Position numbers and translations under genes: made by a program
The notes under the pieces: generated by a model
Database searches by the model: none
What the model saw: only the letters and a program-made list of their open reading frames with translations
Told to the model about the DNA's origin: nothing
Virus record (IMG/VR): IMGVR_UViG_2579778660_000005
Source: a virus
Lineage: Duplodnaviria > Heunggongvirae > Uroviricota > Caudoviricetes
Strand: one strand, 5' to 3'
Length of the DNA stretch: 16,519 nt
Part shown: positions 2,619 through 11,736 of the stretch, piece by piece
Layout: each line of letters begins with the position of its first letter
How positions within the stretch are numbered: position 1 is the first letter of the stretch

Positions 2619-3209
2619 ATGTCTCGAATTTTTGCTTACTGTCGGATATCAACGCTGGATCAGACCACCGAAAATCAACGCCGGGAAATCGAAAGTGCAG
2701 GTTTTAAAATCAAACCTCAGCAAATAATCGAAGAACACATTAGCGGCTCAGCAGCAACCAGTGAGCGTCCTGGTTTTAACCGGTTGCTTGCTCGCCTGAA
2801 ATGTGGTGATCAATTGATTGTGACAAAACTGGATCGCCTTGGTTGTAATGCAATGGATATCAGGAAAACAGTGGAACAACTGACCGAAACAGGTATCAGA
2901 GTGCATTGCTTAGCATTGGGGGGCATTGACCTGACCAGTCCAACAGGAAAAATGATGATGCAAGTAATTTCAGCAGTCGCTGAATTTGAACGAGACCTTT
3001 TACTTGAACGCACTCATTCCGGGATAGTAAGAGCCCGCGGCGCAGGGAAACGTTTTGGTCGACCACCTGTGTTAAATGAAGAACAGAAACAGGTGGTATT
3101 CGAACGAATTAAGTCAGGTGTAAGTATAAGTGCCATTGCCCGGGAATTCAAAACCTCGCGGCAAACCATTTTAAGAGCCAAAGCAAAACTTCAGACACCT
3201 GACATATAA
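2619..3209 (+). CDS. pinQ: Serine recombinase, Gin/Hin/Pin-family DNA invertase
   Basis: 196 aa; N-terminal catalytic motif YCRISTLDQ and C-terminal HTH region typical of Pin/Gin invertases. Confidence 0.93.
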
Positions 3210-3306
3210 AAAATAATCTCGGTGTGAGATGCTTTACGTCTTCCAAGCCCCCTTCCTTGCCGTAAATGGAAAGATACATCTAATTATAGAATTTATATGT
3301 TTTACC

Positions 3307-3882
3307 CTACGGCAGTGCTGGCCATTCAATATCCTGTGCAGTTGACGTATCAACACGGTTCAGCAATACCCGATACTTTTTCCATGCTTCCAGCAACGAG
3401 ATTTCTTCCTCCGTTGCAATTTCCAGATCTGCAGCATCCTGAAGCGGCGCAATATGCTCACTGGCTACCTGCATCAGGTTGTTTTTTGTTTCTTCCGCCT
3501 CCCGGATCCGGAACAGTTTTTCTGCTTCCGTATCCTTCACCCAGGCTGTGCCGTTCCACTTCTGAAACTCCCCTTCCGGCGATAACCAGGTAACATTTTC
3601 CGGTAACGGACCGAGTTCAGAAATAAATAACGCGTCCCCTGATGCCACGTCATAAACTGTTTTACCCCGATGGTCTTCAACAAGATGCCACGATGCCTCA
3701 TCACTGTTGAAAACAGCCACGAAGCCTGCCGGAATATCTGGCGGTGCAATATCGGTACTGTTTGCTGGCAGACCTGTATGAGGCGGAATATATGCGTCAC
3801 CTTCACCAATAAATTCATTAGTTCCGGCCAGCAGATTATAAATTTTTATGGTCTGTGGTTGTTCACTCATTCTGAATGCCAT
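3307..3882 (-). CDS. tfaQ: Tail fibre assembly protein (Tfa)
   Basis: 191 aa recalled as lambdoid Tfa; start ATG overlaps the stop of the upstream tail-fibre ORF (TAATG arrangement). Confidence 0.85.
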
Positions 3883-5338: not shown

Positions 5339-5831
5339 CGCCCCTAAATTGCCGCGGGCCAGTTCACCTATCAGAACGCCTATCTCCTGGCGGGCTGCTG
5401 CACTTTTCAGACCCAGCGAATGCGTGGCTTTTCCTGCCTGCTCCATTTTGCGGATATACACTTCTGCAGCACTGCTTACCCCCAGCTGGGCTGCCTTAGC
5501 ACGAAGCAACTCAGAAGATGAAAGATTCAGGCGGGTTGACATCACTGGCCGGAATGAGTTGTGCCGTTTCCTGTTCGAACTTAAGACGCTCACGTTCAGA
5601 CTGATACCAGGCTTTGCGCTCATGCGCGTCCATTTCGCCTTCTGCAACCGGCGGTGGTAATGCCAGAAATGCCGACACAATATCAACCACCCGATAAAGC
5701 TTGAGGTTGCTTTCATGCCCCCCTGCAACGGGTAGATTTTGCAGCCTTGCCGCAGCAGTCTGGCGATGTACACCTGACAGTGCCGCCAGTTGACTGATAT
5801 TCAGCGTCAGATTTTTTAACTCTCGATCCAT
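5339..5831 (-). pseudogene. nohQ: Terminase small subunit, Nu1-like (NohA family), frameshifted near 5535 and continuing in frame into the L fragment
   Basis: 106-aa frame (5511..5831) resembles the lambda Nu1 N-terminus; a second frame open from about 5542 carries Nu1-like C-terminal similarity and runs without stop into L. Confidence 0.55.
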
Positions 5832-9444: not shown

Positions 9445-9840
9445 CTAACCTCGCATGTCAAAGCCAGATTTCTGAAAATCTCTGTAGACTTCCGGATTGT
9501 TGAAGGCCGGAAATTTGGCTTTATGAGCTGCGGACTTTATCGCTTCGCAATAGGCTTTATCACCGTTACTGGTAGATATTTTTAACGCCGTGCCATCCTG
9601 AGAGAATTCCATATGCAACCTGCATTTTTTCCCTTTCCAGTTATGCGGCTCATCAAGTTTGGCATTAATTGCAGCTCTGATTCCCCGCGCTTGCGCCCCC
9701 CATTCATCCTGATCATCCCAGCGTCCTGAACTGCAACTACCTGTAGCAGTAGTTTTGTGGCAATCTGAAGGGTGTAAAGGTGTGCATCCCGCAACAAAAC
9801 CGACCCAAAAAGTCAACATAACGATTTTCTTTAATCCCAC
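9445..9840 (-). CDS. Lipoprotein with diverged TolA domain III-like C-terminal domain (paralog 1)
   Basis: 131 aa; GTG start preceded by GGAG; signal peptide with lipobox VAGC; C-terminal part aligns with paralog 2 and with remembered TolA domain III. Confidence 0.75.
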   Translation of the reverse strand: MGLKKIVMLTFWVGFVAGCTPLHPSDCHKTTATGSCSSGRWDDQDEWGAQARGIRAAINAKLDEPHNWKGKKCRLHMEFSQDGTALKISTSNGDKAYCEAIKSAAHKAKFPAFNNPEVYRDFQKSGFDMRG

Positions 9841-9990: not shown

Positions 9991-10419
9991 TCAGGGTTTA
10001 AAATCCAGCACCCCATTTTGAAATACTTTATATACTTCCGGCGAAGGGGGGGCAGGTATATCAGCATTCTTTATCGCATTCATCGCTTCACGACATAAAT
10101 CGAGGTCTCCACTTTCTCTTTTAACCTCCAGTAGAAGGCCATTCGGGGCCATATGCATTCTCAGTGTACACTCTTTTCCTGAATACTTACTCGCATCCCC
10201 GAACTGTTTTTCGATGGCGCTCTTGATTTGATGGGCATACAGACGGATATCCTCACTAACATCAGAAGTACGTTCAGATGAACTCACATACTGTGTCTCT
10301 ATTGCTTTATCGGAGTAATATGATGTACGGTCATGATAATTTGTCGATACAGCATCAGTGCACCCGATAATAATCCCACTAATAATCAACGTAAGAATTG
10401 ATGCGCTACGAAAACCCAT
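9991..10419 (-). CDS. Lipoprotein with TolA domain III-like C-terminal domain (paralog 2)
   Basis: 142 aa; ATG preceded by GAGG; lipobox IIGC; C-terminal 86 aa (YAHQIKSAIEKQF...GKECTLRMHMAPNGLLLEVK...IPAPPSPEVYKVFQNGVLDFKP) about 60 percent identical by eye to the remembered E. coli TolA C-terminus. Confidence 0.8.
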   Translation of the reverse strand: MGFRSASILTLIISGIIIGCTDAVSTNYHDRTSYYSDKAIETQYVSSSERTSDVSEDIRLYAHQIKSAIEKQFGDASKYSGKECTLRMHMAPNGLLLEVKRESGDLDLCREAMNAIKNADIPAPPSPEVYKVFQNGVLDFKP

Positions 10420-10448
10420 TTTTCCTCACATATGTCATATAGTAAAGG

Positions 10449-10454
10449 ATTATA
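10449..10454 (-). promoter_or_regulatory. Candidate -10 element (TATAAT) for the lipoprotein genes
   Basis: Perfect TATAAT on the minus strand about 30 bp upstream of the paralog-2 start; -35 is weak. Confidence 0.3.
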
Positions 10455-10952
10455 TATACCGTTGTTTTGGACGCTCAAACAGCGAATCAGATCAAATAAA
10501 ACGCACATTTGTTAACATTTACACAAAGTCTGCGTGGGATATTCTGAAAGAATATCCATAATGTGGAGAGAATCTATTGAAGTGCATGGTGCCGGGTGCC
10601 TCCCGGTGAATTCAGTACCAGCACCTGAATCCGCGATTATCCCATATACCTACTCGCTGATTGCCCCTCCGCACAGGGGGATTCACCATGCCAGTTTCTT
10701 TTAACAAACTCCCCGCAAACCAGAGAACAGTCAACCGCCTGAATTGTGAAGTATTTAAAAATTTCTCCCGCTAACTGATACCCGGCTAACAGTCTGGCGT
10801 TTTCTTTTTCAGCAACGGGAAAGCAACAACCACCACACCCGCCACCAGCACACCGTCAGCCAGCACTGACATTATCCGGCTGCTGCAATGCCATTCACAA
10901 AAACAGTAAGCAATCACTTTTTACCGTAACAGGTGATAATCCAGATATGTAT

Positions 10953-11306
10953 CTACCCCAGATGAGTAATCCGAAGTTCATCCATACCACAGGTCCTGGC
11001 TATTCTGTTGTACTCCTGAACAAGAGCAAATAATTCTGAATTAGCAACCATGAACTCATCGCAAACCCTCTGTATAGCATCACTATTCAGAATAATAACG
11101 TCTCTTCCCGAAAGACGATCAGGAGCACAGAACAAAACTGTCAAACGGCTGAAGGCCTTTGCTCGTGCTGCATTGACTATATCAATACGCTGCCTAAGGA
11201 TGAAACACCCCGACGCCTCATCAATATTCACTCTACCCACACCATATGAATGATAAATATTTAATGCTGAAAAAACCATTAGACCGTATAACAAACACTC
11301 AATCAA
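10953..11306 (-). CDS. Hypothetical protein (117 aa, TTG start; possible cargo gene)
   Basis: Long ORF in an AT-rich stretch, same orientation as the late operon, directly downstream of the tRNAs; no recognised motif; start codon uncertain. Confidence 0.35.
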   Translation of the reverse strand: MIECLLYGLMVFSALNIYHSYGVGRVNIDEASGCFILRQRIDIVNAARAKAFSRLTVLFCAPDRLSGRDVIILNSDAIQRVCDEFMVANSELFALVQEYNRIARTCGMDELRITHLG

Positions 11307-11416
11307 TACTTAACAGAACTTTTATTTTTGACAAACATATAATATTTTCAACAATATCCTGAGCCAGGTATATTCCAGTATAAGGCTCTGCCGGAAGGAA
11401 TCTGGAAGAATGAATA

Positions 11417-11493
11417 TGGCGCGCTGTACTGGATTCGAACCAGTGACCGATTGCTTAGAAGGCAATTGCTCTGTCCGGCTGAGCTAACAACGC
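11417..11493 (-). tRNA. argO: tRNA-Arg (anticodon UCU)
   Basis: 77-nt cloverleaf folded by hand: acceptor GCGUUGU/ACAGCGC, D-stem GCUC/GAGC, anticodon stem AUUGC/GCAAU with loop CUUCUAA, T-arm ACUGG-UUCGAAU-CCAGU, 3' CCA. Confidence 0.9.
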
Positions 11494-11597
11494 TGAATAC
11501 CGATAATGGACCGCCATCGGGGACCCGCCCCCCCCCGCACCAACAACCCTGTTATCGTGTCGTCTGCTCTTCCTGATAAGCTCATGGCGGTTTGTGA

Positions 11598-11673
11598 TGG
11601 TGGCCCTTGCTGGATTTGAACCAGCGACCTGGCGATTATGAGTCGCTCGCTCTCACCACTGAGCTAAAGGACC
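11598..11673 (-). tRNA. ileZ: tRNA with CAU anticodon (Ile2-like or Met)
   Basis: 76-nt cloverleaf: acceptor GGUCCUU/AAGGGCC, D-stem GCUC/GAGC, anticodon loop CUCAUAA, T-arm GCUGG-UUCAAAU-CCAGC, 3' CCA; one mismatch at the top of the anticodon stem. Confidence 0.8.
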
Positions 11674-11712: not shown

Positions 11713-11736
11713 AAAAAACCCGCTCGGTGGCGGGTT
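11713..11736 (-). terminator. Rho-independent terminator downstream of Q (tR'-like)
   Basis: Minus-strand AACCCGC-CACCGA-GCGGGTT stem-loop followed by a U-tract. Confidence 0.6.

Follow-up and report, generated by a model that had tools for sequence, protein, structure and literature searches.

A prophage cassette probably combining an STnc100-family sRNA, a small selected gene and a tciB derivative in the late region of a lambdoid Escherichia coli prophage

The DNA between the tRNA genes and the lysis genes of a lambdoid Escherichia coli prophage, which an earlier note had described from its letters as uncharacterised cargo with a 117-aa open reading frame (ORF) and several small ORFs, very probably represents a three-part minus-strand "moron" cassette embedded in the late operon, between the Q/tRNA genes and the lysis genes, and composed of a small protein gene (here called gene X), a TciB-like membrane protein gene (tciB') and the gene of a small RNA (sRNA) of the STnc100 family. 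All three parts belong to catalogued families (phrog_2873, PF13064 and RF02076, respectively), and the cassette is an ordinary and widespread one in E. coli prophages. What is new is mild and concerns gene X only, which appears to be a genuine selected gene that RefSeq annotation has skipped in every sampled genome of the window lineage. The identity and boundaries of the parts, the purifying selection on gene X and the deletions in tciAB are established by the comparisons presented here. The observations of the earlier note are partly confirmed, and its interpretation is partly supported.

The window, that is, the whole 16,519-nt stretch of DNA that was analysed (IMG/VR record IMGVR_UViG_2579778660_000005), corresponds to the late region of a Qin/mEp460-like lambdoid E. 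coli prophage and is read on the minus strand, in the order Q antiterminator, PR'/tR', tRNA-Ile, tRNA-Arg, cassette, two lipoprotein genes with TolA C-terminal domains, and the holin and lysozyme genes of the lysis module (Table 1). Many E. coli chromosomes and phage mEp460_ev081 contain DNA near-identical to it (99.9%), and the same gene order is found in near-identical annotated genomes and in this phage. The two lipoproteins (9991-10419 and 9445-9840, both minus) are paralogous, carry the lipoboxes IIGC and VAGC, consist essentially of the TolA C-terminal domain (PF06519, E=2e-23 and 1e-14) and are encoded immediately ahead of the holin gene. In the periplasm, they could serve as decoys for TolA-dependent colicins or filamentous phages, which, if true, would constitute a form of superinfection exclusion or colicin tolerance. 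The promoter match ahead of the TolA-like lipoprotein gene agrees with the sigma-70 consensus at 10 of 12 positions and is the top-scoring one in the region, as a consensus match alone; when the region upstream of the tolA-like gene is compared across the module junction with locus L003 (comparison loci are designated by L numbers), homology is confined to the coding regions. Within the 104-nt spacer between the tRNA genes (11494-11597, minus) there is a long run of G (GGTGCGGGGGGGGGCGGG). At this position Stx phages have three tRNAs, and the spacer may be a degraded third one. Elsewhere in the window, Rfam IS009 matches at 3341-3539 (minus) with 220.9 bits against a gathering score of 117.

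Table 1. Features of the cassette and its surroundings (positions are those of the window)
Feature	Position	Strand	Basis or remark
Q antiterminator, 273 aa	11817-12638	minus	
Terminator-like hairpin after Q	11717-11736	minus	
tRNA-Ile(CAT)	11598-11673	minus	
tRNA-Arg(UCU)	11417-11493	minus	
In-frame N-terminal extension of the 117-aa ORF	11232..11306	minus	L003/L004 comparison, distant homologues
Gene X, 92 aa, GTG start	10953..11231	minus	core of the 117-aa ORF; conserved frame, dN/dS, phrog_2873
tciA 3'-end remnant and tciA/tciB junction, 28 nt	10918..10945	minus	JLK-2012 match
tciB'/DUF3927 small membrane protein gene, 43 aa from GTG	10786..10917	minus	PF13064, phrog_1470, PGAP
28-aa hydrophobic ORF, ATG 10872	10786..10872	minus	nested in the 43-aa GTG ORF
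Conserved box GAAAT-TTTAAAT-CTTCACAATTCAG-GTTGA-TTCTCTG	10721..10785	minus	upstream of STnc100
Plus-strand 28-aa ORF	10688..10774	plus	antisense to STnc100
STnc100-family sRNA gene (Rfam RF02076)	10530..10720	minus	covariance model
Weak hairpin followed by UUUUAUUU	10493..10535	minus	fold; candidate sRNA terminator
Sigma-70-like promoter match TTGAGC-18-TATAAT	10449-10478	minus	ahead of TolA-like lipoprotein gene

The 530-bp gap at 10420..10952, in which the earlier note had seen two 28-aa ORFs, contains an STnc100 sRNA gene that it had missed. The match to RF02076 spans the full model (1-206 of 206) with a score of 114 bits (E=9e-25; gathering score 47), and no other Rfam family was found in 10300-11450 at E up to 1. 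In ten STnc100 copies from the window and related loci, an invariant 5' hairpin (GCAUGGUGAAUCCCCCUGUGCGGAGGGGC) and a 3' core (ACCGGGAGGCACCCGGCACCAUGC) enclose a hypervariable centre, and double (compensatory) changes preserve 11 of the 37 pairs in the RNAalifold consensus of these copies. The window copy forms all core helices, including the long-range closing helix and the internal hairpins. A canonical GC-rich terminator with a U-run is present in eight of the ten copies, whereas the window copy lacks both and has, at the terminator position, an AT-rich 9-bp hairpin without a U-run and, 30 nt further, the weaker hairpin with its U-tract. Because the canonical terminator and U-run are absent, the 3' end and stability of the window sRNA are uncertain. 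The 3' junction of this copy is fixed at an identity of at least 99% in 771 genomes.

A conserved box precedes the sRNA and extends beyond the Rfam model. It is kept ahead of all nine copies compared, including tandem copies only about 60 nt apart, and reads GAAATGTTAAAT..CCTCACAATTCAG..GTTGA..TTGTCTG at equivalent positions in L003, L009 and L010; it could be a candidate promoter, a 5' leader or an unmodelled 5' part of the sRNA. In E. coli 07-4299 (L003), four tandem STnc100 copies (2686-3665, minus) directly follow the X homologue and a fifth (5425-5637, minus) follows a tolA-like gene; the central segment is different in each, and this looks like a diversified sRNA array. The tandem spacing of about 60 nt, together with the conserved box upstream of every copy, suggests that STnc100 copies may be self-contained transcription units.

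Several members of the family have been studied elsewhere. STnc100 copies are transcribed in EDL933, and one has been confirmed by Northern blotting (PMC5331693). The Hfq-binding sRNA EcOnc27/sRNA103 overlaps STnc100 downstream of stx2B (PMC12711010, PMC7873438), and the EPEC sRNAs called PasD are related to STnc100 in structure but differ in their seed regions (bioRxiv 10.64898/2026.05.13.724894). The window copy joins this family, which includes EcOnc27/sRNA103 of EHEC Stx2 phages and has PasD1 and PasD2 of EPEC as relatives, by its full-length model match, invariant 5' hairpin and 3' core, and it has the same place in a lambdoid prophage, with the late promoter/Q on one side and the lysis genes on the other (PMC7873438). 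What sets it apart is a central variable segment specific to this cassette lineage, and its AT-rich hairpin without a U-run replaces the canonical GC-rich terminator. The Rfam scan showed neither AgvB nor AsxR, as a partner sRNA, in the vicinity. Identity with IpeX of DLP12 was considered and rejected, the nmpC-essD region of K-12 DLP12 showing no STnc100 match. By analogy with its Hfq-binding relatives, EcOnc27/sRNA103 and PasD, the sRNA would most likely regulate host mRNAs in trans, with the variable central segment at about 10600-10660 forming the base pairs; for this as for the other parts of the cassette, expression, targets and mode of action are matters that we infer.

The element might instead belong to the genes upstream, as a 3'-UTR or terminator module, or to the TolA-like lipoprotein gene downstream, as a structured 5' leader, although this seems unlikely. 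Its placement directly after tciB in three phages (the tciB-STnc100 linkage is seen in phages JLK-2012 and 813R8) and after stx2B in Stx phages (PMC12370729) would suit such a role, and the scan found no convincing sigma-70 promoter immediately upstream of STnc100; moreover, with no canonical terminator on the window copy, transcripts might run on towards the tolA-like gene. However, four-copy tandem arrays with a canonical terminator on each copy, a spacing of about 60 nt and a conserved upstream box argue for independent units, as does the RpoD binding reported at STnc100 copies in Salmonella LT2 (PMC10794520), and in the window the weaker hairpin and U-tract, followed by the promoter match, part the sRNA from the tolA-like gene. 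An sRNA gene in its own right is the reading retained here.

The same locus explains a plus-strand 28-aa ORF that the earlier note had placed at 10687 and credited with an AGGGGG ribosome-binding site (RBS). The ORF is present, with its ATG at 10688 and AGGGGG at 10675-10680, 7 nt upstream, but this supposed RBS is the complement of the invariant first hairpin of the sRNA, CCCCCUGUGCGGAGGGG (CCCCC...GGGGG). The sole match of the ORF is to phrog_27294, an unknown-function family on the same sRNA locus, and a plus-strand "pseudogene" annotated by PGAP at about 10561-10701 (converted coordinates) likewise overlaps STnc100. Protein ORFs or pseudogenes annotated by PGAP and phage annotators on or antisense to STnc100 also occur in L010 (2917-3150, minus, and 2527-2739, plus). 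Almost certainly, then, this plus-strand ORF is no gene but an artefact, and protein "families" over STnc100 copies, such as phrog_27294, are probably spurious; the apparent RBS, the ORF and the PGAP pseudogene would all be shadows of the RNA structure on the opposite strand.

The 117-aa ORF of the earlier note, starting at TTG, is present in the sequence at 10953..11306 (minus), and its reported AT-richness holds (41.5% GC, with 31.9% in the spacer that precedes the conserved start and 46.8% in the window); the conserved unit within it is the shorter one of 92 aa from GTG 11231. The length of the ORF is not significant, a stop-free run of at least 118 codons arising in 7.5% of region shuffles. 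Its coding capacity was examined by comparing three E. coli lineages, namely that of the window and two diverged ones (L003 and L004), at 71-76% nucleotide identity. In all three, the 279-nt frame is free of indels and both the start (GTG AAT ATT GAT) and the stop are identical. Pairwise dN/dS in the sense frame is 0.26-0.27, and third codon positions differ about twice as often as first or second positions (44 versus 25 and 23, 40 versus 20 and 19, and 40 versus 24 and 18). One other frame shows low dN/dS, an antisense frame that shares its third codon positions and is closed in L003. Large protein clusters of 253, 175, 146 and 370 members have the X ORF intact, and disrupted variants are seen as singletons only. 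As far as sequence comparison can tell, gene X is a genuine protein gene under purifying selection.

Its start can be placed by the same comparison. In L004, the region upstream of the GTG is unrelated to that of the window and has AGGAG four nt ahead of the GTG; in L003, the corresponding stretch is out of frame; and distant homologues start at most three residues from the GTG position. Because the upstream sequence is unrelated in one lineage and out of frame in another while the homologue starts agree, the 117-aa start appears to have been mis-set and the real gene to be the 92-aa one. The TTG at 11306 is thus not taken as the start of gene X, and the extension probably does not code but belongs to a 5' UTR or promoter region. 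The Shine-Dalgarno sequence ahead of the window's GTG is weak, and candidate promoters upstream of gene X are weak consensus matches only (from the scan, and TTGATT-17-TCTAAT by eye). A terminator-like hairpin within the gene (11099-11117, minus; CGTCTTTCGGGAAGAGACG followed by a T-rich run) lies over its most conserved motif, PDRLSG, and is probably coincidental.

It is highly improbable that the 117-aa ORF is open by chance, within a non-coding AT-rich spacer where only regulatory or structural DNA follows the tRNAs. This is in effect how PGAP treats the region, no feature being annotated under gene X in any of the 36 near-identical RefSeq genomes sampled from about 1,183 carriers, and the length of the ORF against shuffles (p about 0.08), the TTG or GTG start with a weak RBS and the occurrence of 67-95-aa ORFs on the opposite strand too would all be compatible with it. 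Chance does not, however, explain an indel-free 279-nt frame whose start and stop are shared by three lineages at 71-76% identity, a dN/dS of about 0.27 with a roughly twofold third-position excess, or equal-length homologues at 22-39% identity in Citrobacter and Providencia; the opposite-strand ORF is not kept in L003, and PGAP itself annotates the sister lineage as WP_001017777.1.

The earlier note had recognised no motif in this ORF, and no function can indeed be assigned, but the protein belongs to catalogued PHROG families. It matches phrog_2873, whether taken as the 92-aa core (E=3e-57, residues 1-92) or as the long ORF (E=2.2e-69, residues 10-117), and it has a weak match to phrog_4827, both families being of unknown function; no match was found in Pfam, NCBIfam or PADLOC, and PDB sequence and profile searches were empty or insignificant. 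An exhaustive HMM search revealed a small family in Escherichia, Citrobacter and Providencia, with distant homologues of 91-97 aa in Citrobacter, Providencia and other E. coli lineages. The counterpart annotated by PGAP in a diverged E. coli lineage is the 92-aa hypothetical protein WP_001017777.1, and proteins of this type align with X end to end at about 62% identity, with the same length and in the same moron slot; unlike that lineage, the window's lineage of X is without annotation in the RefSeq complete genomes sampled. At the DNA level, gene X is found at an identity of at least 95% in 1,186 of 5,426 complete E. coli genomes, 1,183 of them with at least 80% query coverage.

Structure prediction, which the earlier note had proposed for the large ORF, yielded a model for the 92-aa core. 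AlphaFold2 gives two long helices (residues 3-35 and 50-81; mean pLDDT 83) joined by a conserved loop, FSRLTVLFCxPDRxSG, and the protein is predicted to form an antiparallel two-helix hairpin. It is acidic (pI 5.7) and has neither a signal peptide nor a membrane segment; since there is no signal peptide, it is probably cytoplasmic. Fold searches with the model returned generic coiled-coil hairpins only, and the resemblance to antiparallel helical hairpins such as Rop, prefoldin arms and designed hairpins is fold-generic, without sequence relation or functional information. Based on the fold alone, X might bind another protein or self-associate into a helical bundle rather than act as an enzyme. 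An IraP-like anti-adaptor role was considered because IraM occupies a neighbouring slot in sister prophages, and it was rejected at an hhalign probability of 0.1%, against an IraP sequence not drawn from a database.

The genomic surroundings of X homologues vary. They lie between Q or a DNA methyltransferase gene and the lysis genes in L003, L004, L006, L007 and L014, between tail modules in L017 and L018, and beside a fimbrial operon in L016. The order X-tciA-tciB is intact in L006 and L007, and in L003 the gene is followed by the four-copy STnc100 array. A functional tie of X to tciAB or STnc100 was considered and set aside, X standing alone in L004, L014, L015, L016 and L017; because it also occurs alone, its linkage to tciAB is positional and not obligate. 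The L006 contig (JAEWMQ010000075.1) is labelled as a Bacillota MAG, yet its phage genes are of the E. coli type (DNA methyltransferase, X at 61% identity, tciA and tciB), and it is likely mis-binned or a contaminant. Whether X goes further, being a functional, translated, host-modulating protein and thus an unstudied helical-hairpin moron of enterobacterial mobile elements missed by RefSeq annotation, is doubtful. If this were true, X would have been missed systematically in more than a thousand complete genomes of E. coli, ST131 among them, and the adjoining TerB/TciB, TolA-decoy and sRNA cargo might hint at an undescribed envelope-stress or superinfection-exclusion function.

Between gene X and the sRNA lies the 28-aa strongly hydrophobic ORF that the earlier note had suggested to be a small membrane peptide or toxin. 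It is present, and the RBS before its ATG is as poor as stated, but it does not stand alone: it forms the C-terminal two-thirds (membrane helix and KKK tail) of a 43-aa ORF that matches Pfam DUF3927 (PF13064; E=1.7e-27, 95.6 bits against a gathering cut-off of 25, profile positions 7-53 of 53) and the "TciB-like" phrog_1470 (E=8e-13). PGAP names it a DUF3927 family protein of 43 aa and, in one genome, of 28 aa exactly. The membrane kind had therefore been judged correctly, whereas a toxin finds no support and the copy looks like a remnant. Relative to tciB of phage JLK-2012, tciB' carries deletions of 4 nt and 5 nt that together put the first hydrophobic segment out of frame before the original frame resumes, leaving YCFCEWH in place of the N-terminal hydrophobic segment, so that the two-segment architecture of full-length TciB (50-54 aa) is lost; both segments are kept in the L006 and L007 homologues. 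No TerB-like tciA stands directly upstream; a 28-nt remnant is left, with 86% identity to the tciA end of JLK-2012 (E=6e-4 in a pairwise search). The JLK-2012 tciA-tciB pair (gp79/gp78) occupies the same slot after Q-linked tRNAs and is 93% identical in nucleotides across the sRNA and the 3' two-thirds of tciB, but its TciB has 54 aa and two hydrophobic segments, whereas the window version has 43 aa with the first segment scrambled and TerB-like tciA deleted except for 28 nt.

By these signs, tciB' is evidently a decayed, tciA-deleted and N-terminally scrambled derivative, and without its partner and first membrane helix it is probably non-functional or residual. Selection on it is not measurable because the cassette is too uniform, being nearly identical across genomes. 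That the 28-aa (or 43-aa) hydrophobic peptide is by itself a functional small membrane protein or toxin is rather unlikely: the two frameshifting deletions that turn the first segment of the 54-aa TciB into YCFCEWH, the deletion of the usual partner tciA and the poor RBS ahead of ATG 10872 all speak against it, and no function has been demonstrated for any DUF3927 member, no paper mentioning DUF3927 having been found in the literature search; the phrase [quoted passage not shown] is an annotation string only. Against this decay stand an ORF that is open in every sampled genome carrying the cassette, the retained C-terminal motif MSVLADGVLV...PLLKKK and the fact that single-helix membrane peptides of this size can be active.

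The proposal of the earlier note that the region is horizontally acquired cargo is well borne out. About 1,183 of 5,426 complete E. coli genomes carry the tRNA-X-tciB'-STnc100 cassette at 98-100% identity, and the prophages that contain it differ in their flanking genes; the cassette lies between conserved phage modules, varies in presence and flanks and has an atypical GC content (41.5% in the 117-aa ORF versus 46.8% in the window), as expected of a moron. In ST131 strain 4993 (L012) and strain 2013C-3513 (L013), the genes that come after it encode not the TolA-like lipoproteins but IraM (an anti-adaptor) and a SASA-family esterase, and this replacement of the flank points to modular exchange at the 3' end of the sRNA.

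Taken as a whole, the analysis is mainly a correction, in that a prophage late-region "gap with small ORFs" is better explained by a known sRNA family. Gene X appears as a member of the prophage cargo pool, with nothing pointing to a new kind of system. The modestly useful result is that X is conserved under purifying selection yet is unannotated in all sampled carriers, and that carriers as a whole make up about one-fifth of complete E. coli genomes, including clinically important lineages.
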